A DNA stretch of 64,000 bases from Lentisphaeria bacterium (GTDB lineage: Bacteria > Verrucomicrobiota > Lentisphaeria > Victivallales > Victivallaceae). This document shows positions 15,001 to 36,783 of the stretch, one piece after another. Every line of letters begins with the position of its first letter. The stretch's first letter is position 1. The stretch spans positions 44,062 through 108,061 of the forward strand of contig CAAGED010000012.1 in assembly GCA_900768505.1 (NCBI GenBank). Reading direction: 5' to 3'. Below the pieces are notes generated by a model. The model saw only the letters and a program-made list of their open reading frames with translations, was not told the origin of the DNA and did no database searches. Made by a program: the position numbers and the translations under genes.

Positions 15001-18000
15001 TTATACGCAATTGTGGAAGAAGAAATGCTGAAAGTTGCCTCACCAATTCCACTATAAATGTAAACTGCACTGCCATATTCTGCTTTATTGGATGCAATAG
15101 TAGTATTACGTATATCCAATATACCGGAATCAGAGGAGACATACACCGCACCGCCCTGAGACGCAGTATTGTAACCCATTGTCACACGGTCAAGCACCAT
15201 TGTACCGTTGCCGGTGAAATATACCGCACCGCCGTTTTGGGCGTAATTGTTATATAAAGAGGAATTTCCTATATACAAATTACCATTGTTTGATACACTA
15301 ATAGCTCCGCCGTCAACATTCTCGTTATGCAAAAACAAGCTCTCTTCAACTACTACATAACCGCCGATATTATCAATCGCCCGCTTGTTGTTGATGAAAG
15401 TAACATTATCCAGCAACAAATTGTTATTATTATTTACAATCACGCTTTCGTTACTGTTATTGGCAAACGTTACATTGCTTATTCTGACGAAAATGGAATT
15501 GGTTACATTATCCTTCAAATGAATGTAATTCAACTTCATGTCCAAATATGAACCATCGCCCTGACCGGCAATAATGATATCTTTACCGGCACCAATAATA
15601 ATATTGCCGCCAATATTGCCATCATTCAAACGGGTCTCCGCCAATTCAATAGTCTGGCCGCTTACCGCCGCGTTCACCGCCGCTGTAACTGTTGTATACC
15701 CAACACCGGTATCTGCATTGAAAGCAACGATTCCATTATACTCATACGCACCGAAATCCCGGTATCCACTGGCCATAAAACCGCGGGCATCCTGCCGCTT
15801 CAAACCGGTATCATTAAAATCCAGCCGATAGCTGATGTTATTTTGAACATTGTTAAAATATTTTTTATCAGAAGCCAATGCAAGAGAATCCCCGGAAATC
15901 GCCAAGGTCTCCACATAGCCGCCATTGTCAGAAAGAGTGTAATTTTCGCCAAATATACTCCCGTAACTAAACTCATAAATCGTGGAATTCCCCTGGAAGG
16001 CCCCCAACTTGTGGCCATCGTGGCTATACAGATACAAATTCTGGTTTTTTATGCTGTTCGTATCTGTAAAATCAATACTGCTATCTGCTTCATATTTTTG
16101 TACAATACTGTTGATGCAGATAAACTGGTCAGATCCTTCAACCGCATCAAGTGAATTATAAGAGAGATTCTTGTTGTTGACAATGGTCACATTTTCCGCG
16201 TAAATCGACCCCGGATTGCTGAAATTATTTATCGCCACACCGTAATTGTTGGCAATAGTTGTATTCAGCATGGTAAGTTTGCCGGAATTGGTTACTGCTC
16301 CGGAATGTGTACCGCTGATACTTATATTCTCCAGCACTGCGCTACCGGCGGCTATCGCCGTGTCACCGGCCTCCACATCACCGTTTCCGATGTAAAAAAT
16401 ACCGTTGTTGGAGTTAAAAATCGCAGTATCGCTTTTACCATCCGCCAAGCCGACGCTGCCTCCCTTGAACTTCACGTTCTTAAGATAAAGCGCACCAATC
16501 AACTTTCCATATTCATTGTCAACGGCAGTGTTGACCAAAGCAGCACTGTTTTTTCCGGCTATGTTATTGATAAAAGAGAGCCTTTCACCAACAAACGTGC
16601 CGACGTTGTAAACCGCCGCCCCCATGCCGTTAATTGAAAAATTGCTAAAATTGCTGTCGGTAAGCTTCACATAACCGCCGTTATTGTAAATGGCACCACC
16701 CATCTGCTGACCGGAACCAACATATCCATAATTTATTTCACCACCGTCAAAATCAATTTTAGATGCTACTAAAGCAGCGTTGCTGTTTATATTAATCATC
16801 GTTCCCTGGTACAGCTCAGTAACAACGCCTCTATCCCATTTAAAATTGATATTGTCATAAATCATATCCATATCAAATGAGATAATGCTGTTGACCATCA
16901 ATGATGACCGCAATGAAATTGTTTGGCCGTTCATCTCTTCGCCAAAAACAATTTTTCCTCCATTGTTTCTGGTGTTGGTTATATACTCCAATGCCGCCCG
17001 CAGAGAACCACGACCGGAATCATTATTATTTACCACAATGTAGTCGTCCGCTGAATAATCAACCACATTAAAGGTATAACTTTTTGAATCAAACTTGCCA
17101 TCGCTGCCGGAATTAATTATTCCATCAATATAAGTTGTACTTCGATCCGTTACTTCATACAGCACATGATTATCCAAACGAGTGTACAAATTATAGTTGC
17201 TTAGCGCAATATCACCAACCTTCAAACTGAAGGTAAAGGCCAACCCGATCGTCCCGGTCGACATCACTTTGTCCGGATCAGCCGGATCAATTATCTCGGT
17301 AGGCTCCTGTGATACATTAATGACAAGGCTCTTTCGTACCCCTGTCAATTCGCCATTAAGACTGTTATCGCCTACATACAAAGCGTAAATATTTCTGTCA
17401 GTTGCGGTGCGGTCATAATTTCCCAAATATACCAGACTATCAGTCCTGTAATTCAATTCCACACTGTTGTTGATCGCACTGATATATCCCCGGCTATTGT
17501 TGTTGCCAATGTACTGCATTACCGAATTCAAAACCAGTTTATTGCCGGAATGAAAATTATTATCCATCACAAATGCAACTTCGGAGGAAAAACGGGCATC
17601 AATAGTAAAATCACCTTTTACGGTATAAACAGTTCCGTTTGTATCAGTTATCACTGTGCGGCGCAACACAAGATTATTGTAAACATTTTCATAACTACTA
17701 ATGCCTATTTCTCCATATACTTTCAGTAAATTAGTATTGGTATAAGCAGAATTTTTCACCAGATTTTCAGAATAAATTATTGTTGAGTGGTTGTCACCAA
17801 ATTCATAGGAAACGCCGTTAAGTTCAATACTCCCAGAGGATGATGTCAAAATATACCCGGCGACCGGGGTGTTTGGATTGGCAAAACTCACCGCTGTAAC
17901 ATCGACATTATATACCAAAGATGAGTTTTCCAACAATGACAATTTACTGCCCCGGGTGATATTAACCTGAACCCCGCTGTATTCTTCATTAGTACCATAC

Positions 18001-20429
18001 TTGCCGATTAAATTATCTCCCCAGGTCAACGCGGCATTTCCGGCCATATACAAAGATGAATAATTGTCCAAACTCATAACGTTGCCGTTATTAAAGGTAT
18101 CAGACTTAAGATAATTCAGGGTAATATCCTGATAACTTACCATGTTTGAAATATTTAGGGAAAGTAAACCGAATTCGTTGGCGGTGGAATTTTCTCCATT
18201 CAAAATCAACGTGGCATACCTGCCTGAAAGTGTTCCTAAAACAACATTATCGTCAACAACAGCCCCTCCGAAAGATGAAAAACCGGTAACAGTCAACACT
18301 GTATTATATAGGTTAAAACCTCCACCGATCTGATGTCTGGCCGCATAAGCAGCAAGGTTGGAACCATTTAGATTGATTGTCGAATTATAGGCATTAAATG
18401 AGCCAACATGCTCATTGCCCTCACGCAAAATCTGCATGTAGGCGCTGTTTGTCATCGTGAACGTTGTCCCGTAATTGATAGATAACGACGCATCAATACC
18501 AATCACCAGGGAAGCTGGATTAGCAGTAGCTGAATCAGCGGACTGCCGTTTTGCATCGAAAGAAATATTACCTAAATGTTCCGACAAACCAACCGCCAGA
18601 TTCCCCTCAATCGACAAAGCTCCGGTACCGCTGAAATCCGCCTTGACGAACGTGCCGGTTCCGTCGCCCGTGACCACAAAGGTTCCACTTACGACAGTGA
18701 TATTAGCCATAACAAAGTCGGCGCCATCCGCAACGTCCATTGTGTAATTACCGCCGCCCATGAAGGTGATGTGTACTGCAGTATTGGCAAAATCTGACAG
18801 CGTAAATTTTCTTCCTTTGTCTTCTGGATCATTTACTTTATAAAAATCCAATTCCAGCAGATTTCCGCTTCCGGTGGTGTAGAAATCACCACCGGTAACC
18901 GATACGGTCATTGTAAAATCTGTACTCGGATTAAGGATAATATCGTCATAAAGCGCACCAAAGCTGCCCGGATTATTCTCCGGGTGATAAATATAAGAAT
19001 AATCTATCTGATCGACCCACGGAATCTGATTTTTATTAGCGGCATCCTTGCCGCCAACAACATCCATGGCCGCTGCTACATCACAATGGGTCAACCGGGC
19101 AATCTGATTAACCAAAGATTGATTATCAGGTGTGGAGGCAAATTTGGTACCGTAAAACATAATGTCGGCACCATCGGCCAGGCCATTACTCCACCGCTCC
19201 AAGTTTTCCCTCGTGGAGTTTCTACTTAGGTAAGCGGAATCAATCGTATCCATTCCGATACGGATTTTCCCGTCCGTGCCCTTTGCTACAATATGCAACG
19301 CATCGTAATACTTTCCCGGAGTATCGGGAAAACCATCACCATCCGTGTCAATCGTTGGGGAATTTAAAAAATTGGTTATTGAACTTACTCCACCACTGGG
19401 CAGAACTTGAATTACTCTGAAACCATTCGGAGCCTGATACTTCGGCTCGTCTTCACTTCCGGTGTTTTCCCAGCCCAAACTCTTGCAAATGGCATTCCAC
19501 TCGCTATCAGTTATCGATGCATCGCGAACCACCAACTGTTTAAGTTCGCGAATTGTGTCATTATATTCCAGGAGCGATGAATCAAAATAATCCTGCACGT
19601 CAGTAGTAAGATTTTCGTCCTCAGTGAAATTTGGATCTAAAAGTACATTACCGGCGGCGTCCACTCCATATTCCAGTGTCCAATTGGCCGGGTCATCATC
19701 ATACGCATGAGTTGCATCTGCGTCACCGGTGGAATCAGTGGAGGCAAAAACATTACTATCCGTCGCTTTGGCGATGGCTTTTATAGTTTCGATTGATTTA
19801 TCTGTCGCTGCAGCATCTGATGCAAAAATATCAATCTGCCCGTCAGCAGCCATGCTGTTTTTTATGGCATCCCAAATATTCTGATCGCCTATCGTCGAAC
19901 TGTTAGTTGGAGTTTCTTCCCATTTTTCCTGAGCCGCGGTGCCTGCATTCTTGGAAACAACGATCAACGACCCGTCACTATCATGATTGCAGATAATACC
20001 AAGACGATCAATCTCAGTTACATTCTTATCGCTTAACAAATCGGTCAGCTGCTTCACCAAGCCGGCACTGTCAGTCTTTGATGAATCGTATTCAATTACC
20101 CAAGTACCAGCTTTTTCCGCCGAATCAACCAGAAAATCATATCGCGCCACATTTTTATCTATAAACAACACATTAACCCCGCCCGCAAGCGGCGCTCTTA
20201 ATGGGCCGGCCGCGGCCAAGGTTTGAAGTAATTCGCTTTGTTCATCCCGGCCGTCTGCTGCCTCAGCGTTGGCATCAGCGGCCCGGTTTTCTTTTTGCGC
20301 ATCTTGCGCCTCATTATCTGCCTGTTGACGAGCCGCCTCTTCCGCTTCCCTGGCCTGCTGCTCGGCATTTGCGACGTCTGCTACCGCAGCACCATCGAAC
20401 AATATTCGATCTTCCAATTGATACAACAT
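1..20429 (-). CDS. Giant secreted adhesin-like protein, 3' partial (at least 6,800 codons in the window). It has an N-terminal DUF4347-like domain followed by a long array of GGAIY / parallel beta-helix (Pmp-like) repeats. It is not in the ORF track because its stop codon lies beyond position 1.
   Basis: I reverse-complemented 20429 downward by hand and got an open frame of more than 600 codons. It starts at ATG (plus-strand cat at 20427-20429) preceded by the SD AGGTGA. The N-terminus is MLYQLEDRILFDGAAVADVANAEQQAREAEEAARQQADNE. It is followed by VNVLFIDKNVARYDFLVDSAEKAGTWVIEYDSSKTDSAGLVKQLTDLLSDKNVTEIDRLGIICNHDSDGSLIVVSKNAG, which resembles DUF4347. Spot checks at about 16000, 13500, 6600 and 1-120 stay in the same minus frame (codons on plus positions 3k..3k+2) and give repeats such as GMGGAIASSGGAEISNSTLAYNIAGAGGALALSYNV and GGAMYANTNKLEINQSAFVNNSAGTNGGALY. 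All ORFs listed on the minus strand in this region are in one other frame, and none is in this frame, as expected if this frame is occupied by an unreported ORF. Plus-strand ORFs here have the skewed I/Q/N-rich composition typical of antisense artefacts. Caveat: the printed text shows an apparent -1/+1 pair near 13.32-13.50 kb. Confidence 0.75.
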   Translation of the reverse strand, partial: MLYQLEDRILFDGAAVADVANAEQQAREAEEAARQQADNEAQDAQKENRAADANAEAADGRDEQSELLQTLAAAGPLRAPLAGGVNVLFIDKNVARYDFLVDSAEKAGTWVIEYDSSKTDSAGLVKQLTDLLSDKNVTEIDRLGIICNHDSDGSLIVVSKNAGTAAQEKWEETPTNSSTIGDQNIWDAIKNSMAADGQIDIFASDAAATDKSIETIKAIAKATDSNVFASTDSTGDADATHAYDDDPANWTLEYGVDAAGNVLLDPNFTEDENLTTDVQDYFDSSLLEYNDTIRELKQLVVRDASITDSEWNAICKSLGWENTGSEDEPKYQAPNGFRVIQVLPSGGVSSITNFLNSPTIDTDGDGFPDTPGKYYDALHIVAKGTDGKIRIGMDTIDSAYLSRNSTRENLERWSNGLADGADIMFYGTKFASTPDNQSLVNQIARLTHCDVAAAMDVVGGKDAANKNQIPWVDQIDYSYIYHPENNPGSFGALYDDIILNPSTDFTMTVSVTGGDFYTTGSGNLLELDFYKVNDPEDKGRKFTLSDFANTAVHITFMGGGNYTMDVADGADFVMANITVVSGTFVVTGDGTGTFVKADFSGTGALSIEGNLAVGLSEHLGNISFDAKRQSADSATANPASLVIGIDASLSINYGTTFTMTNSAYMQILREGNEHVGSFNAYNSTINLNGSNLAAYAARHQIGGGFNLYNTVLTVTGFSSFGGAVVDDNVVLGTLSGRYATLILNGENSTANEFGLLSLNISNMVSYQDITLNYLKSDTFNNGNVMSLDNYSSLYMAGNAALTWGDNLIGKYGTNEEYSGVQVNITRGSKLSLLENSSLVYNVDVTAVSFANPNTPVAGYILTSSSGSIELNGVSYEFGDNHSTIIYSENLVKNSAYTNTNLLKVYGEIGISSYENVYNNLVLRRTVITDTNGTVYTVKGDFTIDARFSSEVAFVMDNNFHSGNKLVLNSVMQYIGNNNSRGYISAINNSVELNYRTDSLVYLGNYDRTATDRNIYALYVGDNSLNGELTGVRKSLVINVSQEPTEIIDPADPDKVMSTGTIGLAFTFSLKVGDIALSNYNLYTRLDNHVLYEVTDRSTTYIDGIINSGSDGKFDSKSYTFNVVDYSADDYIVVNNNDSGRGSLRAALEYITNTRNNGGKIVFGEEMNGQTISLRSSLMVNSIISFDMDMIYDNINFKWDRGVVTELYQGTMININSNAALVASKIDFDGGEINYGYVGSGQQMGGAIYNNGGYVKLTDSNFSNFSINGMGAAVYNVGTFVGERLSFINNIAGKNSAALVNTAVDNEYGKLIGALYLKNVKFKGGSVGLADGKSDTAIFNSNNGIFYIGNGDVEAGDTAIAAGSAVLENISISGTHSGAVTNSGKLTMLNTTIANNYGVAINNFSNPGSIYAENVTIVNNKNLSYNSLDAVEGSDQFICINSIVQKYEADSSIDFTDTNSIKNQNLYLYSHDGHKLGAFQGNSTIYEFSYGSIFGENYTLSDNGGYVETLAISGDSLALASDKKYFNNVQNNISYRLDFNDTGLKRQDARGFMASGYRDFGAYEYNGIVAFNADTGVGYTTVTAAVNAAVSGQTIELAETRLNDGNIGGNIIIGAGKDIIIAGQGDGSYLDMKLNYIHLKDNVTNSIFVRISNVTFANNSNESVIVNNNNNLLLDNVTFINNKRAIDNIGGYVVVEESLFLHNENVDGGAISVSNNGNLYIGNSSLYNNYAQNGGAVYFTGNGTMVLDRVTMGYNTASQGGAVYVSSDSGILDIRNTTIASNKAEYGSAVYIYSGIGEATFSISSSTIAYNVSTVGKGAVYNNNVTAYLLNTLITENYLLKNGNLIDHDDVSGQAPQSAKYNISGDFITFNSIFETTYLYDEETDKYIFNGNFEDSRLKDNGGYQYTLMLSANSLAVDGGIVTGNDGFDQRGYQFVAVNNENLASYDRIGAGTARDIGAVERGGYIGYYTVNGGTGKNYFSSFEILEPEWNPETGVKPENTNGFAYTDGKEYVRDGIKSVNIYLNSTRILTERTYDIQTSYLKGINNNSDWEHQDITISFFGARDGGTVISGGLDHAIFTYSGSVKYEGTLTVDNDSAALSEDGIPALNYIGSLSIKGGNISFDRMTLRDSLGSAISADRSTIYQYILSSSLQHGYFENVKYAYSDGVANAQLSLNEVTVTNSMALGGTAKLNVYSISEKIVGADYHLEIGYNQLTDEDGGNVHYGADVRSVVSTTEKGETLYNFKVAFFDTTMSHVGGVMEVNDDGGAVSDYVFARYDYGSGMGIETIPEKDLGSYSIVVNNSSFYGNYAKGMGGAIASSGGAEISNSTLAYNIAGAGGALALSYNVTGSTIAYNVALGHYQEFYTLKDNLVVKVFGGVIEGGAGLGVERKYDSDGERIYKSSIVGKNYSSGSVNWNDQVIGNTKLNLDDYNVYETTNSFNGSISETTRVTKYNYFTMPTLGESFATAKPLVFFNGVLADFGGWTKTLSIRGAAWFDSAAFDGVYDQTTGTDQRGYGVANGYRDIGAFEAGGNYAYANGKGYSSIAALLARPEAATDGVFEITLANTRITDRNIRLDGKINITGGVDTSGNVLTYFDANRLGRVFNITSESAVVSLTNLILMNGVAMKTSVLGSDGGGLIASSGNLTLTNITGQNSFAQNAGGAVYSTMNLSVNGSSFVNNRANVGGGIYASGTSVSAKDVTFFANYAHDGGGMYVQNLNLTGGGLVFEKNYATNDAAGLYILGDDTTNIDIAASFTDNYVLGSGAALNMIGGAKFAGNLHVADNIAIHDGGGIYMLNTAVIDLKGNFDDNRSVLGMGGGAYIGNVVTSANIMSTFLENQSFGNGGGLYIYGNTVDDVNMADLTLNLVDFIKNATLGSGGGAYIFNFRNVVFSSVNFGSSGTIASMNGNSAFGDGGGLYIKEVDNFTGKKLGFGDNRAGQSLGIDIKASNDGLATGGAAYFLNVGTISMTNMRVSDNRLGGDVRLDEYIHGGITVLADKSARRTTTKIEIFNTDFLYNSGASLYVDALKAEIRLDSSSFDNEHSALSSTAFLSYGAYVKNAASMYVVNSTFSHNYVNLMVKNLTDTVNGLTINFSTIAYAYTRTNNPETIYGGVGLQLDNGTLNISNSIVAYNMIVLNNGVNGVTVRSSHHNVFENLLSSSSQAINGFQGTQKQLNNLIWGSDVAGNYIEIQSYYNGNEFTNKGKVLTSNGNLVGYDETARGFIRTNLYLDSRSLYHGAQNTQSLALTSKDSIAYHYKLNGVEVRPGEMDDSTFYDQNGNIRTGIEMYFQRYERNEITGMVDLVTYTYSADIKDRDMSGNITKGELVEVSRDVNVKGAEVTAEGKYIVVYKYTEQQSIIYVDGVASNANDIFYRYEMNELTGNNDRVGKYQYNDKTRNWEYFKIDADGNEMSQGEVLKDGMSYEVQTQDGRVVNIDYVAKCWMEVIAREDGTITRNIINQDLFFTEDGKVFQGNKIDVAVDEFGNVTDFYQWNQVHGKWQHTTMDAEGNFSTTWINGQVSVTDLNGIEYHYELNQSVRDVDGNYYNFDQVSADGSEIKFTNSASGVTQTFTFDGTKWVDGNNNVLILDGGDISAYNGRAQVLRGLVMTDGSMRYEIVTRDVIQNAQGDNVQPDENGRIVVSPGMSLEYNFSERLWYSVDSDGIRTKLQDGDKFTKADGEVYIFKSNGCIDERVENVKELSGEFSGRVSIGAVEPNYYLTVTSNHNGFSDKILQNVTSDDSALTFADRMFTDGVSLQEAIYWLDNYTMSGIDYGILLETGKRLESNFDVDRYVKFSDTMIDSGKTTITNDLDKNSYFIRKDIVIGGGNVGNLTEAERYDDKNHFFEFDNTYLAQDSANRIVLDGNGAQSGLLIVSGIDRVNADVVASINNITITNGRATSSTSNNGGGLYISSGNVRDLDNNLNIDCPAAVTVSLNNNLIKDSVASDDRTTGSAWGGGIYNGGGTLYMYDSTVKNNQVVLEANYDRARGLGGGIYNSADGKMEIYRSTIDGNLVDASKVSSIISGLGGGIYNRGSLTMVASTITNNRQIHFQENHAGYQYSLYNGSAIVSEGVLSNTILDGVTVAYNEVGRNLEYPNEFSYAAWFVSGSLSISNSIFAENYVENDPANVRRDIYVEDAVLRQSNNLIGKNNIFGNYRSDAIDTRYQNMIFGAQGTGIVENLLMSTYLKYNGGKTQSYRLGSGSVAIGNGDYTGKPTFDQRGIYVDGVNQLRNTIGAYEMLTYIATTGEQADVALSGSGSVASRDIGFDFANRQSGWNANLRNALYLADEGATVDMTISREHADADGNVNFELVDGALRIFNSLNFNLTAEDGLVLNIDAKGLSRAFIMDSNEFEVASNRDLKVNLLVLDSNGDGKADGMIRLQNTMTDGSANFEGAGGAIYIKGDLTINNLEIINSKAFGAGGAIYLAGQSSKFVVDNLLITNTSAGRNGGALYVGNKLILTNAKFDNVSSEGNGGAIYVNNANEFKLQNVDIDTAFARGGQGGAVFVRGDVADFVFENVNVSNSGTEQTSQDTNMGGGAIYVSAKSSNNVTITNSTFTNNVAVSGGSLMLIGGNVALDKVVVSDSNASKGGGAMYANTNKLEINQSAFVNNSAGTNGGALYLNAVTDMENVTISNNVAVSSGGGIYYAKAGGRLVLSFATIANNVGRFGGGLFMNSGNLLMSNSVLVQNYRKAMANDATWEDKYFASNDLYLGATATFDYSSDYNALGIIEMADGTFAPFGAHNRFLVVINPTDSEFTLDQLKLDFEAKDNGGKTLTVFVDENSILIGAADENSGVLVDQRGRNRVKPITIGAYQRNDVVYYLETGDNVDVTVGGNWYRIENGQKVYDLTSDKFVDDTLDNRYVIQNGAHGVNISSAWETSQNHRVVLNAGGSLTVNDMPADNDVSAFIALNAGAVLTVNGMLNTYGNSISNYGSLTINGGLSNTLSIKQMTGATLTISTSDDKLVNREGEYKGNVISLTVSKGENLVEYIYNGDQTVYDVAYYNLTIGGMSGIKQGSATKNLTVSNELKLIDGGQLLTAKDVQVNGKLSMSGDSVLELGGNLVLPKVTVISDPNYNVNYGYELGDNSTIVYNSAEDRVILNIDYNNLEISGKGVKSLEVIKNYRGEVTDQDLLVNGNMKVVGAEATDEFSFALPGELQVGGDLILQHNGRVDVSGKLGVNGDVTFGKNSEMILSVGGDFLMGGTFDAGLGTIRYVGADQQIIAGNYYNVEFINGSGLSGMVTKQSDSDISAQKISVYENVYLKVKSAAVNDSFLVLNHDGVTPGNSVVEITGINDTLVGKNGSVDGYAFKVNGFFQSGAGKFIYSGDAAAETQQIANLKYYDLTLLGGSTKLFDQAIVANEMIIGDGDISRLMYTHVIFSDGIRTYDSANPAGSQINMLTVKAGGSARLNGVMGADDLRATDLTATNFILERGSEIIYGRIGDQIMAPEFTYSILTIDGSGVKSFVNAALTANRVNIVSDATLDVDGALTVTPYLVNDAQIIDGGLVFVDADGNATAGTLMISGTLNAAYFTAGNGTVIYYGSADQLVTDFGETQAYNNLVLRGGNKSSALFDAAGKSTLGNLYVANDLYLENGVVATTGTVQADNVYFRNLADSSDSNAILQVAGDFIIANEFVAGVGIVHFNGGNQVINGLNYYIVAFSNSGSNMAEKTVSNRINASVGIYIGNNLNVNVADGVTGGEIAFGEYNTTTKSYADSNGVLTLNGSGWVMVGSSFVSGSGTVVYNGASDQYITDWGKDSSYNNITVSGNGGVNNVHLLNDVSSLAVIRAKNTVLIKNNERVNADSVIADSLMFSETVEQPVLDENGEFTYDGKGNIVTQNVMMDYNGYLMVDGLYAERVGAEYKEISAPLHINKFDAGHGTVEFGMTAGYPITSTQYFNALNYYNLVLSGGTMKLAQGDFGIEGAFTATSVEFSIACNKPIVETAYYDRNKVTVTYNGMNQQINTQVEYYALTLASADGVTAVSKSADGQVYAFTDLTFAEKQNVTLILNGSDMKPLSFGNLIHNNVGNIVYAGTNQQIQIFGNHNVPGYDADGKLENRVNYHQLTVDANSMAYADATLQAATLNVLNDGRLELRNDANLLVEKLNSYSVDAEGNLTGEFGTVAYVGNKQIVSNIDTTKDGNALKYGHLEIGGNGDKVAENGLVVKGDLFFSADNELEIKSTIELGALRYNAMGTMHYSATGADVQRVLGGSNIAYNNLKISNGDKRLGDSVAVNGMFEFTQSAGKMIVLDNYELMLNGAITGMNGSVGHYFMVATESANWSEAAEGSENIGWINLSHKANGTSHSVILGTGDNYWSEIVMSNLTTEAQNFIINITFDPSLMGSSVGAWHVLTVKGPNGGDAATYGVELRYTNAADDKFDPQMAEVYDRVSGDNYGHQYKAELNGNGQYSFAATGKLMDGFVVTNTKDFGWGSLRRALDLANAIAGADVITFDPAVFGYGNNYVINVSGALVITESVTFKGIGAEYLTLDGGGSDRIFVISTEFHSDLTVIVEGMTLANGKSDNGGAIYTQGGMLILRETAIRDSHADNGGAVYVDQGAALMVEKSIFSGNEATFGGALYNVGNSSSITAVDTSFIGNKAVEEGSAIYNGKLISEVASTDEAGKATLKLQNYNAYLVLKNVTISGHDSGIAGDKVATISNWGTMDAYNLTIANNGDAAINNWAYDSVSENILDAEGNKIPFHFEAEMNLEHVTIAYNKALGIDYGHSNIINSIVQDADNSNFVNLVTGGSFDNSVSAESVFAQNMVSDNGGWVYTLQLQSASAAVNAIQSASLTNYDARGFLVYGLRDL
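6300..7300 (-). repeat. Example block of tandem ~84-90 nt (28-30 aa) coding repeats with a GGAI(Y) motif, of beta-helix / polymorphic-outer-membrane-protein repeat type. Similar periodicity runs through most of 1-19500.
   Basis: On the plus strand the motif gcaccgcc(g/a) recurs about every 87 nt (about 6420, 6490, 6570, 6650, 6720, 6810, 6910, 7000, 7080, 7160, 7240). This is the reverse complement of GGTGC, encoding the GGA of GGAIY. The same periodicity appears at 11.5-12.5 kb. Confidence 0.6.
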
Positions 20430-20681: not shown

Positions 20682-22322
20682 TTAGTTGGTTTGCACCTCC
20701 CGACTCTTGATATTCTCCTGCTCAAACAGCAAATCAAGTTGATTGCGAAGTGAGGAGTTGGGGTCTATTGTGTTATTATGTATTTCAATTCCATTATACT
20801 TCATTACATTATCGCGCATCAGCGCCTGTTCGCGTTTCATACGGTCGGCATCCACTTCCACGCCAGCCAAAACACTCTCCTGCTGCTTGATTTCCTCCAA
20901 AATTTCGTTCAACGTCGCTTCGGAAATCTCTTCCAAACCTACGGTATTAAGCAACCGGTAATAAGCCACATAATAGTTGCTCATGGCCAAAGTACGGGAA
21001 ATCATCGCCTCCACAGTCTCCATTTCCATACGATCCAGCACCAGGCGAGATAGCGTTCCTGATCCTTCGCTCTTGGCACGTGCGGTTTCCAGCGATTCCT
21101 TATGGGTCAAATAAATATTTTCCTGCAACCGGTAACGATCCTCCACGTCCAAAATATTGGCGTGAGCCATACGAACCTGTGCCATGATGCCGACCGACAA
21201 GGCGAGACGACGCAATTTAATCTCTTCCGCCTCGGAATTTTTTGCCCGCAACTCAGCAACCTGCTGCGGCAACTTCATTAAATTATAAGCTGAACGCACC
21301 GCCACTTCCCACCAGGTCTGATTGTAAAGGAACGGGTTGTTGCTGTTGGTCAAATCCGCAGTGGCGCGAACTGACGGAATCATCATCAAAATAGTCTTAT
21401 AACACTCAGTGGTGGTAATATTCGATTGGGTATCCAACTGGTAAAGTTCCGGACGTTCAACCAGAGCAATCTTTTCCAAATCTTCCGGTGCCGGCAATGT
21501 TACCGACTTGAACTCTTTCAACGCCGAGGTATCCACCATAATTTTACTGCCAGGACGCAATCCCATCAAAGCCCGCAACTCAATGCATGAGTTGTTGTAA
21601 TTACGACGATATTCAGTCAAACGCTGCATCAAATTATAAAAACGTTTCCGCTCGTCCAAGACCATCATCCGGTCCACTGCGCTGGATTCGGCCAACTGCT
21701 TGAACGTATCCAACAATCCGTCGCAACGCTTGAGCAACTCCTCTGTCTGATCAATAGCATCCTGAGTAGCGGCAACCTTAAAGTAGGCGCGAACCACCTC
21801 CAATGTCAAATTCTGCTGAGCCCGGCGGCGCTGTTCCTTGGCAATCATCTGCCGGTCGTGTGCCTGTACGGTATTAAAAAAAGCCAAACCGAAATCCAGC
21901 AGACTCAAAGCAAATTCCACCTTAAAGTCGTTTTCATTCTCATCCGAACTTCTGCTGTATGCGTAGGTTTGAGAACCGGTCAAAATATTCTGACTGGAAG
22001 ATCCCGGCATGTTTGAACGCACCCGATAATCATTGCTGACAATCAAATCCGGCAACATTCCCAACGCAGAGGCGGTAACCTGTTCATTCAAGATCCGTTC
22101 CCGCAGCTCTTCAACCTGATAGTCCAAATTCCACTCCCAAGCCATTTGAATGCAATCCACCAGCGTCAAAGTGCGATTTGCATCAATATCCCGCTGGGCC
22201 GCATTCATGCGGGCAATCCACGCATCAGCGATACGGTTTTTACGAATCTCCTCACTGCTTCTGCATCCGACGAAGATCACCATCGCTATCACGCAGAGTA
22301 CGATTGAATAAACGACTTTCAT
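20682..22322 (-). CDS. TolC-like outer membrane efflux/secretion protein (OMF family), a likely lipoprotein
   Basis: 546 aa. The N-terminus MKVVYSIVLCVIAMVIFVGCRSS looks like a signal peptide followed by Cys (lipobox-like). The protein is long, coiled-coil rich, and Q/E/R/L-rich, as in outer membrane factor proteins. SD AAGGGAG lies upstream of the start. It sits 252 nt upstream of the giant gene on the same strand. Confidence 0.65.
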   Translation of the reverse strand: MKVVYSIVLCVIAMVIFVGCRSSEEIRKNRIADAWIARMNAAQRDIDANRTLTLVDCIQMAWEWNLDYQVEELRERILNEQVTASALGMLPDLIVSNDYRVRSNMPGSSSQNILTGSQTYAYSRSSDENENDFKVEFALSLLDFGLAFFNTVQAHDRQMIAKEQRRRAQQNLTLEVVRAYFKVAATQDAIDQTEELLKRCDGLLDTFKQLAESSAVDRMMVLDERKRFYNLMQRLTEYRRNYNNSCIELRALMGLRPGSKIMVDTSALKEFKSVTLPAPEDLEKIALVERPELYQLDTQSNITTTECYKTILMMIPSVRATADLTNSNNPFLYNQTWWEVAVRSAYNLMKLPQQVAELRAKNSEAEEIKLRRLALSVGIMAQVRMAHANILDVEDRYRLQENIYLTHKESLETARAKSEGSGTLSRLVLDRMEMETVEAMISRTLAMSNYYVAYYRLLNTVGLEEISEATLNEILEEIKQQESVLAGVEVDADRMKREQALMRDNVMKYNGIEIHNNTIDPNSSLRNQLDLLFEQENIKSREVQTN

Positions 22323-22696
22323 TTCCTAAAGCTCCCTTTTGAGAATATATAATATTATTATTTTTTATCCATTTTCCTTAACCATCATTTTTCATCCAAA
22401 CACAGATGGTCGCTAATTATATACAGCTTCAGAAGCAAATATTCAAATTGATTTTTATTTTTTTTTTGATTTTTCTCATTTTTTTCTATAAAACAAATGT
22501 TTGAAATCATATTTTGGCAAAATTTTGCATTCATTTTGCTTTTCCACTTGAATTTATCGCCTATTAGATATATTGTCCTTTGATTGTTGCCAACACATTA
22601 TTTTAAGGGGAAAAAGATGGCAGCGCTATTCATTAAATAATACATAAAAAATCAATCAATTCAGTATTTACTGATTTTAAACGGGGTAGTCAAAAT
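22323..22696. promoter_or_regulatory. AT-rich divergent promoter region between the OMF gene (minus) and the MFP operon (plus)
   Basis: 374 nt of noncoding DNA, with poly-T/A tracts and TTGACA/TATAAT-like hexamers on both strands. It contains a TGGCA-N-TTGCAT element at 22514-22529 (see rejected items). Confidence 0.4.
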
Positions 22697-23512
22697 ATGA
22701 ACAATTTAAAATTAGCAGCTCTTATAGCAGTTACCTGCATTGCAACTCCTTTTGTCGCGTCCGATACTCCCGTGATTCCGAACCAGATCAACCCGGACGG
22801 CATCAACGAAACACTTGATGTGAAAACTGTTTTACTGCCGTTCCGCCAGGCGGTAATCTCATCCAATGTGGAGAGCGTGGTAATTAATTATGCGTTTAAA
22901 GAGGGGGAAAAATTCAAAAAAGGCGACGTTATCGCAAAACTTGATGACCGCAGCATCCGCCAGAAGTACCAGCGGGCGCTCGCTTCAGCCAATGAATCAC
23001 TGGCGGCACTTACCTTTGCCCAACGCAACTACGAAAATACCAAGGATCTTTTGAATAAAACCATCGCCAGCGCCATGGATGTCGAACGCGCCAAACTGGA
23101 GGTTGATGTTAATACGGCAAAAAAACAATTCAACGATGCCAATTTGTACCTGGCCAAAATCGAGCAGGAGGAATGCAATATCACCGCCCCTTTTGACGGG
23201 CGTTTAAAACAAAAACTGGTGCAGGAATTTGAATATGTCCGAGTAGGTCAGCAGCTGCTTCACATCATCGATGACACCAAGCTTCTGGCAGTGATGTATA
23301 TCCCGTCCACTCAAGCTCAAAAGGTAAAACTCGGCGATAAGGTCAAACTCTTCATCGATGAAAAAAATGCCACATACACCGGCGAAATTTACGCTATTGC
23401 CAGCGACATCGATCCCGCCAGCCGAACCTTTGAAATCAGAATTCTGGTGGACAACCGCAATGGAGAACTAATCCCCGGCATGTCCGGACGCTATCAGGCT
23501 CTGCAACAGTAA
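22697..23512 (+). CDS. HlyD-family membrane fusion protein (periplasmic adaptor subunit)
   Basis: 271 aa. It has an N-terminal signal/anchor (MNNLKLAALIAVTCIATPFVAS), a biotin-lipoyl-like hairpin region (VVINYAFKEGEKFKKGDVIAKLDD) and a coiled coil, then a beta-domain with the PGMSG motif near the C-terminus typical of MFPs. Confidence 0.7.
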   Translation: MNNLKLAALIAVTCIATPFVASDTPVIPNQINPDGINETLDVKTVLLPFRQAVISSNVESVVINYAFKEGEKFKKGDVIAKLDDRSIRQKYQRALASANESLAALTFAQRNYENTKDLLNKTIASAMDVERAKLEVDVNTAKKQFNDANLYLAKIEQEECNITAPFDGRLKQKLVQEFEYVRVGQQLLHIIDDTKLLAVMYIPSTQAQKVKLGDKVKLFIDEKNATYTGEIYAIASDIDPASRTFEIRILVDNRNGELIPGMSGRYQALQQ

Positions 23513-23536
23513 CAATCGGATGGAGAACATTTTATT

Positions 23537-24952
23537 ATGCCGCAACCGCAAGATATTCAGAAAGAGTTAATCGCCGCCAAGGGCAAGCTCAACGCCATAT
23601 CCTCAATCATACGTCTTGGGCACGAAGCCTTCTCCAAGATTGACCTGATCTCCTGGGGAGAACATGTGGTAAACAATTCGATTTTAGCGATTTCATACCT
23701 GCGTTCTTCTCTTTTGGATTTCCGGGGTAAAAATCCTAAACTGCTGGCCGTCAGCGGTCAGACCAGTGTCAACGCCGATTCCGAATTCGGTTCCGAAATT
23801 ACCGCAATTGCGGCCGCACTGGGAATGCCGGAAAAGATCACTGTTTTAAACCGCAACGATTTGGAAAACCAGAATGTTTCCGAAACCGCGTTGGCCGCCT
23901 TCGACTACCTCAGCGAAAACTCCCCGGCTATCCTCGCTATTCCAATTCGTACCCCCAGCAAGGATGGCGGCGAAAGCAGTTCAATGCTATGGATCGTGGA
24001 GCTGCCGCAGATTGAACAAATTCCACTGGCCAGCGCCATGGGATCATTGCTGGCTCAACATTACGGTGAATCGCTTTTCTATATCCTTAACAACAAGACA
24101 ACCTCGGCATCGCTGAAAGCGGCCATTTCACGCAATAAATGGCTGGCGCCATCCCGAATTTTTCTCTACATTATTGTCGGATTTATTTTAGCGGCAGTTT
24201 TTGTCCGGATTCCTCAAAACGTCTCGGCTGAATTTGAGATTGTGCCTAACACGGACAACATTTATTACGCCCCATACGACGGCATTATCGCCAAATGTTT
24301 TCAAAAAGACGGCGACACCATCAATGTCGGAATGCCGATTTTGGCATTCGACACCGATGAGCGCAAATTCAACTTGGCCGCGGCACTCACCGAGTATCAG
24401 CGAGTCAGTGCCCAATTGGAAATTACTCAGCGTGAAGCCATCAGCGATGTGGCAAAACGCGCTCAGGTAAAACTGCTGGAACTCCAGAAAAACAAATGCG
24501 CCGTGGAAATCAACCGCAACAACTACTTTCTGAATCAGAGTGAGATAAAATCCACCAATCCGGGCAAACTCTCCATTGGAGAGGCAAGTAAATTGGAAGG
24601 TAAAGCCGTCCGCTCCGGCGAGAAACTTTTTGAAGTGATTGCCACTGACAATCTGGTGGCATTGGTGCAATTGGACGAACGCAATTCATCGGTTTTGAAT
24701 GCCAATCCGGCGGTGACGCTATACCTTTATACCAAACCGGAAGTGGCAATCAGCGGCGAAATAACCTTGGTCAGCCCCAAACCGGTTCTAAACGAGCGCA
24801 AACAATATTGCTACGAAATCAAAACACGGCTTAAAAATGTTAATACCGAACTTATTTGCGGCATGCGCGGCATCGCCCGTATTACCGGCGAAAAGGTCAG
24901 CCTTGGTTACTACCTCTTCCGGCAGCTGGTACTCTGGTGGCGAAAGATTTGA
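23537..24952 (+). CDS. HlyD-family membrane fusion protein with an additional ~200-aa N-terminal cytoplasmic domain and a single TM helix
   Basis: 471 aa. A TM segment IFLYIIVGFILAAVFV sits at about aa 205-220. After it come YYAPYDGIIAKCFQKDGDTINVGMPILAFD (lipoyl-like), a coiled coil, and a beta-barrel domain. The gene is 24 nt after the previous MFP gene. Confidence 0.65.
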   Translation: MPQPQDIQKELIAAKGKLNAISSIIRLGHEAFSKIDLISWGEHVVNNSILAISYLRSSLLDFRGKNPKLLAVSGQTSVNADSEFGSEITAIAAALGMPEKITVLNRNDLENQNVSETALAAFDYLSENSPAILAIPIRTPSKDGGESSSMLWIVELPQIEQIPLASAMGSLLAQHYGESLFYILNNKTTSASLKAAISRNKWLAPSRIFLYIIVGFILAAVFVRIPQNVSAEFEIVPNTDNIYYAPYDGIIAKCFQKDGDTINVGMPILAFDTDERKFNLAAALTEYQRVSAQLEITQREAISDVAKRAQVKLLELQKNKCAVEINRNNYFLNQSEIKSTNPGKLSIGEASKLEGKAVRSGEKLFEVIATDNLVALVQLDERNSSVLNANPAVTLYLYTKPEVAISGEITLVSPKPVLNERKQYCYEIKTRLKNVNTELICGMRGIARITGEKVSLGYYLFRQLVLWWRKI

Positions 24953-24954
24953 TT

Positions 24955-27291
24955 ATGGCAGAAAACAACATCTCATTACCGGCGCCGGAGTTACACGGCG
25001 ATGGTAAAAATTTCTCATTGAAGGGCAATCCTCTGCCTCAGGATGATATTTCGCCCGGCGGAACTACCAAGCCTGCCGCTGGCGAGGTAATATCCGGTTC
25101 GGACACACACTCCGGCGGGAACTCCGTTAGCGTCAACTCTCCAGCAGATTCGGCGCAAGGTGCTCCGATTCCACAACCCGCATTGCAGGAAAAAAAAATT
25201 TATGTAGGCGGATTGCGCACTGATATTGAAATTTTTCCCGGCGAAACCGATCAACAAGGGGCGCCGACTTGGATTATTTTCGATCCGGTCGCCGATACAT
25301 ATTTTAGGGTATCAGAAAAATATTACCGCATCATCAGCGCCTTGTCCGGCACCTACGAATTGGAGCAGTTCATTCGCAAAATGCAGTGTTCCGGTCTGAA
25401 TGTCAACAAAACCGACATTTTAAAAATTATTCAGTTCCTCAATATCGGCAACCTGTTGCTTCCGACTTACGGCGCATCGGCGGACAAAGCTGGTAAAATG
25501 CGGGCCAATAAAAGGAAAATGTTGTGGCACATTATTTTATCCACATACCTTTTTTTCCGGATTCCGCTTTTTAAGCCGGATAAATTTCTCAACCGCACTG
25601 CAGATGCGATACACAAAATATTCAATCACTGGCTTTTGATGACATTGAGTCTCATCGCACTGCTGGGATACGTTGGAATTATTGCCAATTTTGCAAAATT
25701 CACCGATGCTTTCATGAAATCAATTTCAGTTCAAGGATTGATGCGTTACTCAATCGCCGTGATTTTCATCAAAATCATCCATGAATTCTCCCACGCTTAT
25801 ACCGCAAAAAAATATGGCTGCCGGGTTAGGAAAATGGGTATTGCCGTGGTATTTTTCTTCCCACGGCTTTATTCAGACCTAACCGATGCCTGGCGGGTGG
25901 CCGACCGCAGAAAACGCTTTTTAATTGACGGCGCCGGAATTTTCAGTGAACTTATCATCGGCGGATTGGCCGCCGTGGTTTGGTTGAATTCCCGCCCCGG
26001 TATCACCCAAAGCATAAGTTATTATATTTTTGCAGTTTCGGCCATCAATACATTGATGATTAACGGTAACTTTTTCATAAAATATGACGGCTACTACATG
26101 CTGATGGATCTAATAAATGTAGACAATTTGCAGCGTCGAAGTGTGGAAACCATCCGCAATATATGGCGCAAATTTTTCTGGGGGATTCAGCCGCCCCCAA
26201 ATCCGGACGAGCCAACGATCATCACCCAAAATCTGCTGGTATTATATGGCATTGGTTCGTTTATCTACCGAATATTTCTTTACTCTTCAATTATTTTTCT
26301 GGTCTACTTCAGTTTCGATTTTCTCAAACCACTGGCCATCACCTTGTTGGGGTTGGAAGCATTTTTACTAATTATCAAACCATTTTATGATGAAACAAAG
26401 CAGGTATTTATGAATCGAAAAAACATTGCTCGAAAAAACCTGCTCCTTTCCGGAGCCGGTGTGGCCATTATTTTTTTATTGCTGGTGCTTCCGCTGCCCT
26501 GGACCTTGTCGCTGCCATGCGAAATACAATCAGCGCAGCAATCCGTAGTATACGCCGCATTCGATGGGTATCTTGAAGAGATAAAAGTGGCCAACAAGGA
26601 TAATGTCACCGCCGGACAACTACTCTTCAGACAACAAAACCCTTTTGTACATATGGCAATGGAGACGGCCGCAATTGATCTTGCAATTGACCAGACCATT
26701 CTTGATCAAACCGAGAGCAACAGCAAAAAAATCAGCCAGATGGAGGTTGTTGCACAATCTCTGCAGAGCAGTAAAAATAAAATAGCTGAAGCGGAACGTA
26801 AACTGGAACTTCTAAATATTTCAGCACCGCAAAATGGCATATTCAACCTTCACAATCGTCGTCTTACCACGGGAAAATGGCTGACAAAAGGCGAAGTGCT
26901 TGGCGACATTCACGATCCCGGAAAATTAATTGGCAACGCATACGTCGAGGAGCAGGATGCCAAATATATTGAAATTGGCGAAAGTGTGGAATTTTCGCTT
27001 CCGGATCAAATCCAAAGCTACAGAGGCAAGGTGGTTGAATTAAACGAACTTCCGGCCGCCCTCCCCGCCTCGCCACTGCTTAATATCAGTGGCGGCCCCA
27101 TTAACGGAACATTTAACGAGCAGGGAGAATTTATCGCCATGACCACTTATTATCAAGTAAAAATTGAATTTGAAAAAAATGCTCCACCAGCCGGGCGCAG
27201 TGGAATTGCATCTCTTACTAAATATTCATCGGTAGCTGGTAATCTCCTGCGTACCGTCTGGCATGTACTGCTCCGGGAACTTAGTTTCTGA
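24955..27291 (+). CDS. Fusion protein: multi-TM peptidase M50 (site-2 protease-like zinc metalloprotease, HExxH = HEFSH) joined to a C-terminal HlyD-like periplasmic membrane-fusion domain
   Basis: The ORF track gives 24856..27291. I prefer the ATG at 24955, 2 nt after the stop of the upstream gene (translational coupling), which gives MAENNISLP... HEFSH is encoded at 25780-25794 inside a predicted TM helix. A downstream YDGYYMLMDL segment resembles the S2P LDG motif. About 8 hydrophobic helices are present. The C-terminal ~300 aa (VVYAAFDGYLEEIKVANKDNVTAGQLLF ... coiled coil ... LNISAPQNGIF) have MFP-like architecture. Confidence 0.6.
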   Translation: MAENNISLPAPELHGDGKNFSLKGNPLPQDDISPGGTTKPAAGEVISGSDTHSGGNSVSVNSPADSAQGAPIPQPALQEKKIYVGGLRTDIEIFPGETDQQGAPTWIIFDPVADTYFRVSEKYYRIISALSGTYELEQFIRKMQCSGLNVNKTDILKIIQFLNIGNLLLPTYGASADKAGKMRANKRKMLWHIILSTYLFFRIPLFKPDKFLNRTADAIHKIFNHWLLMTLSLIALLGYVGIIANFAKFTDAFMKSISVQGLMRYSIAVIFIKIIHEFSHAYTAKKYGCRVRKMGIAVVFFFPRLYSDLTDAWRVADRRKRFLIDGAGIFSELIIGGLAAVVWLNSRPGITQSISYYIFAVSAINTLMINGNFFIKYDGYYMLMDLINVDNLQRRSVETIRNIWRKFFWGIQPPPNPDEPTIITQNLLVLYGIGSFIYRIFLYSSIIFLVYFSFDFLKPLAITLLGLEAFLLIIKPFYDETKQVFMNRKNIARKNLLLSGAGVAIIFLLLVLPLPWTLSLPCEIQSAQQSVVYAAFDGYLEEIKVANKDNVTAGQLLFRQQNPFVHMAMETAAIDLAIDQTILDQTESNSKKISQMEVVAQSLQSSKNKIAEAERKLELLNISAPQNGIFNLHNRRLTTGKWLTKGEVLGDIHDPGKLIGNAYVEEQDAKYIEIGESVEFSLPDQIQSYRGKVVELNELPAALPASPLLNISGGPINGTFNEQGEFIAMTTYYQVKIEFEKNAPPAGRSGIASLTKYSSVAGNLLRTVWHVLLRELSF

Positions 27292-30411: not shown

Positions 30412-30831
30412 ATGAAGTCATTAAATCCGATTAACGTGGCGGCGGCGGTGATTCGGCGCGACAATAAAATTTTAATCTGCAGTCGAAAAATGCCCGACCA
30501 GATCCTGGCCTGGGAATTTCCCGGCGGAAAATTGGAGCCGGGGGAAAATGCCGGCAATGCACTACGCCGGGAGTTATTGGAAGAATTGGCGCTGGAGGCA
30601 GACATTTTGGATATTCTCTGGATGGAGCTGCTGCCGGACAAGCCGATAAAGTTGATTTTCATCCGAACCGATATTGCACCGGAGTCCGCCATCACCCCCT
30701 GCGAAGGTCAGGAATTCCGCTGGCTTCCAGTTAAGGACTTGCTGAATATCAATCTGCTGCCGGGGGATTATAATTTCGCCAAATATCTGCTGCGTTGCGA
30801 AAAATATAAAAATTATTCAAAAACACCGTAA
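30412..30831 (+). CDS. NUDIX hydrolase (MutT-like nucleoside triphosphate pyrophosphohydrolase)
   Basis: 139 aa. The Nudix box is GGKLEPGENAGNALRRELLEELAL. Confidence 0.75.
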   Translation: MKSLNPINVAAAVIRRDNKILICSRKMPDQILAWEFPGGKLEPGENAGNALRRELLEELALEADILDILWMELLPDKPIKLIFIRTDIAPESAITPCEGQEFRWLPVKDLLNINLLPGDYNFAKYLLRCEKYKNYSKTP

Positions 30832-35745: not shown

Positions 35746-35775
35746 CAATCAACATTTCGGTACGGTTTGCGACAA

Positions 35776-36783
35776 ATGAAAATTCTTGAAGTCAAAAATT
35801 TATCCATTGATATCGCCCAGGACAAGCATACACTCTCCATTGTGGATAACCTCTCATTTGAAGTCAATCAAGGGGAAATCGTTGCGCTGGTGGGTGAAAG
35901 CGGCTGCGGTAAAAGTTTAAGCTGCATGGCATTGGCCGATTTATTACCTCACCCGCCAATGATTTGCCGCGGCGACAAGATTGAACTCGCCACCCGTAAC
36001 GGCAAACTGAATATACTAACCGGATCAAAAAGGGAACTCGCCGCCATTAGAGGACGGGAAATATCTTACATTTTTCAGGAACCTTCCACTTCGCTTAATC
36101 CGGTTTTTCGTGTTGGCAACCAAATTGTGGAAGCACTTCAACTCCATCAGCCGGAACTCGCCGACCCCATGTCCGAAGCAGTGCAATTACTTAAATCCGT
36201 TGGCATCCCTGACCCACAAAGCCGGGTGAAAGCCTACCCGCACGAACTATCCGGAGGCATGCAGCAGCGAGTGATGATCGCAATGGCACTGGCTTGCAAA
36301 CCAAGAATTCTGGTAGCGGACGAACCGACAACTGCATTGGACGTCACAATTCAACAACAAATTCTGCAATTGCTGCGCAAGTTGCGGCAGGAGCAAAAAC
36401 TGGCAATCATTCTGGTTACCCACAATTTAGGCGTGGTGGCCGAATTGGCGGACCGGGTACTGGTGATGTACGCCGGACAATTGGTGGAAAATATGCCGGT
36501 CAGCGAATTACCTGCGGCTCAACACCCTTACACCAAGGCATTGTTAAAGGCAGTGCCCAGACTGGGTGCGCCGGGGCGTCTGCACAACATTCCGGGAACG
36601 GTTCCGCCGCCGGCGCAATATCCGGCCGGTTGCCGTTTTTACTCGCGATGCAGTATAGCACGCCAGCTCAGTGCAGAAGAGCAGCGGAAATGCTCCATGT
36701 GCAAGGCACCGCTCCACTTGGTGAAACCGAACCATGAACTGCGTTGTCATTATTTTGAACAACTGCCTCGAGGCGAAGAATGA
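35776..36783 (+). CDS. ABC transporter ATP-binding protein, oligopeptide/dipeptide (OppD/DppD) type with C-terminal oligo_HPY-like extension
   Basis: Walker A GESGCGKS, the signature LSGGMQQR, and Walker [13 protein letters not shown]. The ORF-track start at 35767 is TTG, so I prefer the ATG at 35776. The stop overlaps the next gene by 4 nt. Confidence 0.8.

Follow-up and report, generated by a model that had tools for sequence, protein, structure and literature searches.

Organization of the locus

[quoted passage not shown] Beside them lies a gene for a giant protein that opens with a short conserved tag. Our results show that the fusion protein is linked across phyla, and from both search directions, to TolC-family OMFs and to giants carrying this tag. 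Since the module is found beside tagged giants and without a transporter, it looks like an uncharacterised machine for processing, and probably for secretion.

The OMF gene (20682-22322, minus strand; 546 aa) and the three plus-strand genes diverge from an AT-rich intergenic region (22323-22696), in which the GC content is 26% as compared with 46% for the whole window. MFP1 (22697-23512; 271 aa) is followed after 24 nt by MFP2 (23537-24952; 471 aa), and MFP2 after 2 nt by the gene for the fusion protein (24955-27291; 778 aa). The giant gene (1-20429), whose product is our candidate substrate, shares its strand with the OMF gene, from which it is 252 nt downstream; its ATG at 20429 is preceded by a ribosome-binding site, GAAGGTGAG, and its frame stays open to the window edge (>6,809 aa), the 3' end lying past the window. 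An earlier note on this DNA had described an OMF, two HlyD adaptors and an M50::HlyD protein with these same gaps, a shared AT-rich divergent region and a giant gene immediately downstream of the OMF, and all four open reading frames (ORFs), their spacing, the base composition and the position of the giant gene bear this out. Promoter-like matches in 22323-22696 were no more frequent than in shuffled sequence in our promoter and terminator scan, and no conserved small ORF was found in this intergenic region or after the fusion gene.

The OMF is classed with the TolC family by its match to PF02321 (OEP; E 3e-27); it also matches TIGR01844 (E 1.7e-16, under the cut-off), and it is a probable lipoprotein (...FVGC). 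The periplasmic adaptor models HlyD_3 and HlyD_D23 are matched by MFP1, MFP2 and the fusion protein alike. MFP1, a short adaptor of the periplasm that begins with a signal sequence, scores 162 bits with TIGR01730 (RND_mfp; cut-off 94.9), and MFP2 is recognized as a HlyD-type adaptor by both Pfam and NCBIfam. MFP2 consists of a cytoplasmic N-terminal domain (residues 1-205; 23537-24151), one transmembrane (TM) helix and a periplasmic adaptor (residues about 245-452), within which the HlyD_3 and HlyD_D23 matches fall (residues 245-443). The N-terminal domain gave no match in Pfam and no sequence match in the PDB, the profile match of MFP2 to the PDB being confined to its adaptor half. A conserved cytoplasmic domain of about 205 residues is unusual for a periplasmic adaptor, and it could be a regulatory or substrate-handling module, perhaps with a GAF-like fold.

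Domain architecture of the fusion protein

The fusion protein is encoded by one uninterrupted frame from the ATG at 24955 to 27291, with no stop between its protease and adaptor parts, and the M50::HlyD fusion proposed in the earlier note is thus a real single ORF. The longest ORF begins with a TTG at 24856; the ATG at 24955 is favored by the homologues and by the structure model. In Pfam, residues 266-442 match Peptidase_M50 (PF02163) with 29.4 bits, above the gathering threshold of 27.2, and HlyD_D23 and HlyD_3 together span residues 524-697. An AlphaFold2 model built on 94 homologues reached a predicted local distance difference test (pLDDT) score of 86.4 and a predicted template modelling (pTM) score of 0.72, with residues 1-69 disordered. 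This disordered part belongs to a long, low-complexity extension rich in G, S, P and A (residues 1-83; 24955-25203), which is absent from most homologues.

The extension is followed by an RRE/PqqD-like domain (residues 84-170; 25204-25464), predicted to be a cytoplasmic binder of leader peptides. When residues 84-196 were modelled alone (pLDDT 85.5), the best ten Foldseek matches were all RRE domains (among them those of TbiB1, TfuB1, PqqD, TigE and CteB), with probabilities of 0.94-1.0 and, for stand-alone RRE entries, target template modelling scores of 0.60-0.66, and the predicted structure has the three-stranded sheet and three-helix winged-helix fold of an RRE. The membrane domain (25552-26454) shows in a fold search the core fold of a site-2 protease (S2P) and resembles RseP and SpoIVFB. 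It contains HEFSH (residues 276-280; 25780-25794), which the earlier note had placed in an M50 protease, as well as YDGYY (residues 377-381); H276-E277-xx-H280 and N370..D378-G379-Y380 (26062-26094) are invariant in the 94 homologues and in four proteobacterial orthologues. The C-terminal part (26494-27288), with lipoyl, alpha-hairpin and beta-barrel elements, is a MacA/EmrA-like adaptor by fold search and by profile matches to the PDB. In the model, the order of the parts is therefore a cytoplasmic RRE, an M50 intramembrane protease, a TM helix and a periplasmic, TolC-docking adaptor.

Among NCBIfam models, daptide_HExxH (NF041824) matches residues 110-451 with an E-value of 5.6e-44, and the epipeptide protease model YydH/LiaK (NF058609) matches more weakly (E 3.6e-8). 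By sequence, the RRE-M50 half is thus homologous to the daptide leader peptidase MpaP; its score with NF041824 is 150.8 bits, half of the cut-off of 300, and the relationship is that of a homologue, not an equivalog. The RRE-S2P half is of a known kind, while for its fusion to an adaptor no description was found in the literature.

Regulated intramembrane proteolysis, in which the M50 domain would cleave a membrane-bound regulator according to an envelope status sensed through the adaptor domain, was one of the two roles suggested in the earlier note. It is the classical role of S2P/M50 enzymes, and the likeness to RseP and SpoIVFB would fit it. However, the RRE is a receptor for leader peptides, the profiles matched are those of RiPP leader peptidases and not of RseP, and no sigma, anti-sigma or other regulator genes are conserved nearby. 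The genomic context thus gives this role no support, and we consider it very improbable.

The giant protein and its N-terminal tag

The product of the giant gene begins MLYQLEDRILFDGAA, and its N-terminal stretch MLYQLEDRILFDGAAVADV is followed by an acidic, Q-rich linker and, later, by two DUF4347 domains (PF14252, E 1e-30), linker and domains together lying at about 19035-20180 in the alignment. Residues 5-15 (20385-20417, minus strand) form the tag LEDRILFDGAA, which varies the LEPR-XLL motif and which we propose as the ligand of the RRE; its position at the very beginning of so large a protein, and its context, fit LEPR-XLL. The tag contains no double-glycine cleavage motif, and no Sec-like signal was found on the giants. 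The body is rich in G, N, S and A, with beta-helix-like repeats and choice-of-anchor Q units (NF041518); in 1-19000, 'GGA[IV]Y...' units are repeated and Cys is virtually absent. GGxGxD (RTX) repeats were found neither in the 6,809 visible residues nor in a complete 3,102-aa orthologue; a C-terminal secretion signal that stays uncleaved would not show in the sequence. Because the body shows no Pfam domain other than DUF4347, the name adhesin, used for this protein in the earlier note, is an assumption.

Giants beside the system in other genomes open with M.YQLE[DE]R[IV]LF[DE][GA]AA, and in an alignment of their N-termini the tag is the sole invariant block. It is because of this conserved tag that we regard the giant as the likely substrate. 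A sequence search with the giant N-terminus gave one protein, through low-complexity words, and a motif-based scan of metagenomes was used instead. A relaxed regular expression for the tag had 49 matches in 3.54 million six-frame positions, and these lay at ORF N-termini only, mostly of long ORFs: all 49 were at most 26 residues from an in-frame upstream Met, 32 of them exactly three residues after it, and 39 continued into an open frame of at least 500 aa. The motif LExRx[LIMF][FY]D[GA]A opens giants beside the same adaptor genes in Lentisphaerota and in one metagenome-assembled genome (MAG) of Planctomycetota.

The DUF4347 domains themselves vary. That of a giant on an E. coli plasmid (L120 14830-15429, NZ_CP081687.1) has paired ILSHG and LLYGC motifs, which resemble a His/Cys catalytic dyad. 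The SHG motif is kept in the giants of L066, L068 and L083; in the window and in most Lentisphaerota the Cys position is replaced (...IFASD/N...).

Conservation of the operon across phyla

A profile search of 1.84 billion representative proteins gave at least 5,294 clusters (50% identity) of the fusion family at E<=1e-30, of which the best 150 are all full-length, at about 700 aa. The hosts include Lentisphaerota/Victivallales, Desulfobacterales, Verrucomicrobia, Planctomycetota, Magnetococcales, and Alpha-, Beta- and Gammaproteobacteria; CP071032.1, CP085689.1 and OZ245791.1 are complete Lentisphaerota genomes that carry the system. A short Logan contig is the only source of a protein 100% identical to that of the window; the matches ranking next are at most 50% identical. 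We surveyed the neighborhoods of 81 fusion-anchored loci, 63 with more than 3 kb of upstream DNA and 32 fully flanked. Gene-neighborhood conservation, which had been put forward as a check on the cluster, was seen for the adaptor genes: orthologues of MFP1 and MFP2 lie directly upstream of the fusion gene in 59 of the 63 loci with enough flank, and four further contexts, Magnetococcales included, show the same adaptor-adaptor-fusion trio. An OMF orthologue is present in 26 of the 81 loci, and in many loci such orthologues adjoin the trio or a giant. In two loci (L009 and L041) a tagged giant lies downstream of the fusion gene on the same strand, and in the Planctomycetota MAG (L083) only the fusion gene is present, with a tagged giant after it and housekeeping genes around the pair. 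In the opposite direction, the metagenome scan from the tag gave 30 loci, and 17 out of the 21 with at least 2 kb of upstream DNA encode one or more of the following: the OMF, the trio and a small conserved protein described below.

A minimal form is found in the Lentisphaerota strain zth2 (CP071032.1), in which an OMF gene, a gene for a 277-aa protein with tag and DUF4347, and the fusion gene follow one another. The 277-aa protein (L030 9178-10011), a kind of 'mini-substrate', comprises nothing more than the tag, one DUF4347 and an acidic linker, and this locus has neither MFP1 nor MFP2.

In cultured Proteobacteria, tblastn searches of plasmid records revealed full-length orthologues of the fusion protein with 24-32% identity. 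Three five-gene clusters, which share the order giant, TolC-family protein, adaptor, adaptor, fusion, are found on plasmid p2 of Azospirillum brasilense, on an IncFIA/FIB plasmid of E. coli between IS5-like and IS1 insertion sequences (IS), and, in our own scan, on the megaplasmid of Cupriavidus metallidurans CH34. On the E. coli plasmid NZ_CP081687.1 the IS-flanked island spans 44829-64580, and its giant has 4,459 aa. Among 5,426 complete genomes, 24 contain the E. coli fusion gene, which is mostly plasmid-borne. The E. coli giant starts ...HRFALESRQLFDGAALAE, with the tag LESRQLFDGAA and a DUF4347 region containing ILSHG...LLYGCDV; that of Cupriavidus starts ...TLALEPRLLYDAAAGAA, with LEPRLLYDAAA, and that of Azospirillum, annotated as a DUF4347 protein, starts ...AMALEPRFMFDAAGAI, with LEPRFMFDAAG, the last two tags having the canonical LEPR form. 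Thus, a consensus LExRx[LIMF][FY]D[GA]A[AG] spans phyla along with the operon.

Some genomes have two paralogous adaptor-fusion operons, namely L035/L059 (CAXXSX010000002.1) and L066/L078 (Victivallis vadensis DSM 14823), and in each pair one copy stands beside an OMF and a giant and the other does not. This suggests that there are several substrates or systems per cell.

A small cytoplasmic protein of 78-107 aa (EIFADGIGQIHFAGGMVRFDFVTLQP...RIIMPPQGFL...MQQLIDKLLEAGVL), about 75% identical among Lentisphaerota, also accompanies the system. In about 20 system loci and nine giant-anchored ones, some 30 in all, its gene either separates OMF and MFP1 or stands a short way upstream of the giant; in some it lies about 1.2 kb upstream of the tagged giant. 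The window has an 84-aa copy (48814-49068, minus strand), 74% identical to the Victivallis copy and 22 kb from the cluster, possibly as an unlinked component. The protein had no match in Pfam or the PDB, and its N-terminus, KEIYADGIGQ, is loosely like the RILFDGAAV of the giant tag.

It would be tempting to see in these data a system for the processing and export of a small, RiPP- or bacteriocin-like peptide encoded elsewhere, with the giant a mere neighbor that shares the OMF. The closest characterised relatives of the fusion protein do act on small peptides, many trio loci have no OMF or giant nearby, and the 78-107-aa protein travels with the system. However, this protein is conserved across genomes beyond what is usual for precursor peptides, no small ORF with a conserved leader was found in the intergenic regions or flanks, and no modifying enzymes are conserved nearby, the radical-SAM gene downstream in the window not being syntenic elsewhere. 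Moreover, the link between tag-bearing giants and the system is seen from both search directions and across phyla. We therefore consider this explanation unlikely, if still worth keeping in mind.

Search for an inner-membrane transporter

The earlier note had remarked that the cluster lacks any ABC, RND or MFS transporter or ATPase and had advised a search of the flanks. The absence held both in the cluster of the window and in more than 100 related loci. The remaining 37 kb of the window (27.3-64 kb; the 3' flank of the giant gene lies beyond it) code for no ABC exporter, RND pump or MFS pump, and the single ABC ATPase there is an Opp-type importer subunit (35767-36783). No transporter was found at a consistent position in more than 110 related loci, and none in the E. 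coli, Azospirillum and Cupriavidus clusters. An ABC ATPase of any kind occurs in 10 of the 32 fully flanked loci, at inconsistent positions (e.g., as UvrA-sized proteins), and we estimate that such sporadic matches are at about the background level for 20 kb of a bacterial genome. No ABC exporter is among the coding sequences listed for the whole 69-kb E. coli plasmid, for which the PLSDB gene table is incomplete, and the gene for the complete 3,102-aa giant orthologue has no ABC neighbor on either side. A transporter encoded with its adaptor, as in a classical type I secretion system (T1SS) or tripartite efflux pump, is thus not what we find.

Two explanations place the transporter elsewhere in the genome. 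According to the first, the genes belong to an ordinary efflux pump and the protease domain is a relic; all three adaptor proteins are in fact named efflux adaptor subunits by the Prokaryotic Genome Annotation Pipeline (PGAP). Nevertheless, neither the catalytic HExxH nor the Asp varies from phylum to phylum, tagged giants are linked to the module, and the adaptor genes of real efflux pumps are normally adjacent to the gene for the transporter, so that we regard an efflux pump as hardly credible.

The second explanation concerns retention and release only. An unlinked classical T1SS of the ABC type would export the giant, C-terminus ahead, by way of the adjacent OMF; the trio would only keep the tag and DUF4347 at the envelope, and cleavage by the M50 domain would set the giant free, in functional analogy to the action of LapG/LapD on LapA. 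LEPR-XLL giants with C-terminal RTX regions exist, the tag sits at the N-terminus, the part that leaves the cell last in a T1SS, and the cytoplasmic domain of MFP2 could sense a signal. On the other hand, RTX repeats are missing from the complete 3,102-aa orthologue, three dedicated adaptors exceed the needs of a tether, and an ABC gene is neither at a consistent position in the more than 110 loci nor listed, as far as its incomplete gene table goes, on the E. coli plasmid. This explanation, too, seems to us improbable, slightly more so than the export of a small peptide.

A putative processing machine for giant proteins

In the explanation that we prefer, the N-terminal tag would be bound by the RRE and cut off by the M50 domain, within an adaptor/OMF complex dedicated to the giants; we would give this explanation a probability of roughly 55%. 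The OMF and the products of the three plus-strand genes would form an envelope-spanning complex for giants with an LExRxLFDGAA tag and DUF4347, in which the three adaptors might build a mixed ring beneath the OMF. RREs bind RiPP leaders as an added beta-strand, and by analogy the RRE of the fusion protein may capture the tag in the same way. M50 enzymes such as RseP and SpoIVFB favor small, helix-breaking residues, and the active site may cut in the Ala-rich stretch directly after the tag. Recognition and cleavage of the tag might then be coupled to movement of the giant through the OMF, or else to holding and freeing it at that site. Translocation across the inner membrane could be achieved by an ABC transporter encoded elsewhere or by the complex itself. 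That the five genes are a self-sufficient TolC-dependent secretion route, which works with no ABC, RND or MFS transporter, is an idea that we put forward tentatively and hold to be rather doubtful.

There are precedents for the individual steps. For the daptide protease MpaP, which takes off a leader, the term 'RRE-dependent intramembrane peptidase' has been used (PMC10028931), and the M50 protease EpeP is thought both to cleave its peptide and to export it (PMC10885120). The processing and export of a leader-bearing substrate was the other role suggested in the earlier note, and its first half is now strengthened by the RRE domain, which that note had not recognized, and by the daptide_HExxH match; export by the complex itself is a candidate role.

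Several points weigh against our interpretation. Binding, cleavage and export by this system are proposals from domains and genomic context. MpaP and EpeP act on small peptides, and the giants have 3,000-7,000 residues. About two-thirds of the fully flanked fusion loci have no OMF or tagged giant within 10 kb, and other or unlinked substrates must therefore exist. The tag of the window matches the LEPR-8K model (NF012209) only weakly (residues 4-16, 11.9 bits, E 0.13; cut-off 17), and this sub-threshold match was the only one that the giant N-terminus gave in NCBIfam. An LEPR-XLL giant reported from Vibrio carries an RTX region at its C-terminus (PMC10868602), a sign that a classical T1SS exports it, so that an unlinked ABC-type T1SS is possible. 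Finally, every characterised TolC-dependent system has a transporter (PMC8277102), and here neither a transporter nor an energy source is found.

Comparison with known systems

Our system is best filed as a combination of two known kinds, the peptidase-coupled T1SS and the daptide/epipeptide leader peptidase, being like each of them in part. With MpaP it shares an N-terminal RRE fused to an M50 domain and, by prediction, the recognition and removal of an N-terminal leader. It differs in its C-terminal periplasmic adaptor, in its diderm host with an OMF and two extra adaptors, and in its candidate substrate, which is giant and carries LExRxLFDGAA instead of the daptide motif ELExMEAP. Neither the daptide enzymes (DUF-RRE protein, dehydrogenase, aminotransferase and methyltransferase) nor short precursors ending in Thr were found adjacent to the cluster in the window or in the other loci. 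EpeP/YydH, too, matures a product that bears a leader and is an M50 protease of the membrane; it is Gram-positive and has no adaptor domain, and its radical-SAM epimerase and ABC transporter are absent here.

In the CvaAB-TolC type of colicin V export, an N-terminal leader is cut by a protease built into a TolC-dependent machine, as is predicted for our system. There, however, the protease is a C39 cysteine peptidase on an ABC transporter, whereas here it would be an RRE-M50 unit on an adaptor. Unlike the peptidase-containing ABC transporters (PCATs), our system has no ATPase and no double-glycine leader, and neither a C39 nor an ABC domain was found in it.

LapA, with LapB-C-E and LapG/LapD, resembles our system in that a giant repeat protein with a special N-terminal module stands next to an OMF and a dedicated protease acts, in our case by prediction, near an Ala-Ala site. 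LapG is, however, a soluble periplasmic cysteine protease, LapD is a receptor for cyclic di-GMP, and export is by an ABC transporter. Because no LapG-type (BTLCP) protease or LapD-type receptor was found among the cluster proteins or their neighbors, this is not a Lap-type system. MacAB-TolC and EmrAB-TolC each have one adaptor and a MacB or EmrB, in place of which our system has three different adaptors and no equivalent of either transporter.

The LEPR-XLL (NF012209)/DUF4347 (PF14252) giants have an N-terminal LExR..L, then DUF4347 and thousands of residues, as the giants described here do, although the tag of the window falls below the model cut-off. In the literature we found nothing on the operon or on the function of DUF4347 or LEPR-XLL, most subscription journals being outside our search, and within these bounds the statement in the earlier note that no characterised system has this form stands. 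The link of LEPR-XLL/DUF4347 giants to an RRE-M50 adaptor operon thus appears to be undescribed.

If the tag is bound and cleaved as we propose, the LEPR-XLL/DUF4347 N-termini of many giant surface proteins would be given a function, and the 'leader peptide' logic of RREs would reach beyond RiPPs to proteins that are thousands of residues long. The outcome might be a newly defined route by which proteins are secreted or surface proteins mature; if the five genes were self-sufficient, TolC-dependent protein secretion would gain a new type, and LEPR-XLL/DUF4347 N-termini their first function. In this widespread operon, TolC-type channels are combined with three adaptors and an intramembrane protease that bears an RRE, and a transporter is absent; the IS-flanked copy on E. 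coli IncF plasmids opens the question to genetics.

Neighboring genes

The genes at 27-64 kb of the window are mostly housekeeping genes (KsgA, HPRT, IMPDH, MutL, UvrD, PFOR and Hsp33), together with that of the Opp-type ATPase. A radical-SAM gene (30813-31835), KsgA and GT2-like glycosyltransferase genes were considered as YydG-like partners of the fusion protein. They are not syntenic in the other loci, the glycosyltransferase in two close relatives excepted, and are therefore mere neighbors. In Victivallis sp. Marseille-Q1083, the orthologous operon has 4-5 kb downstream of it a type II CRISPR-Cas9 system (Cas9, Cas1 and Cas2; L001/L002 16557-20840), which is probably unrelated.

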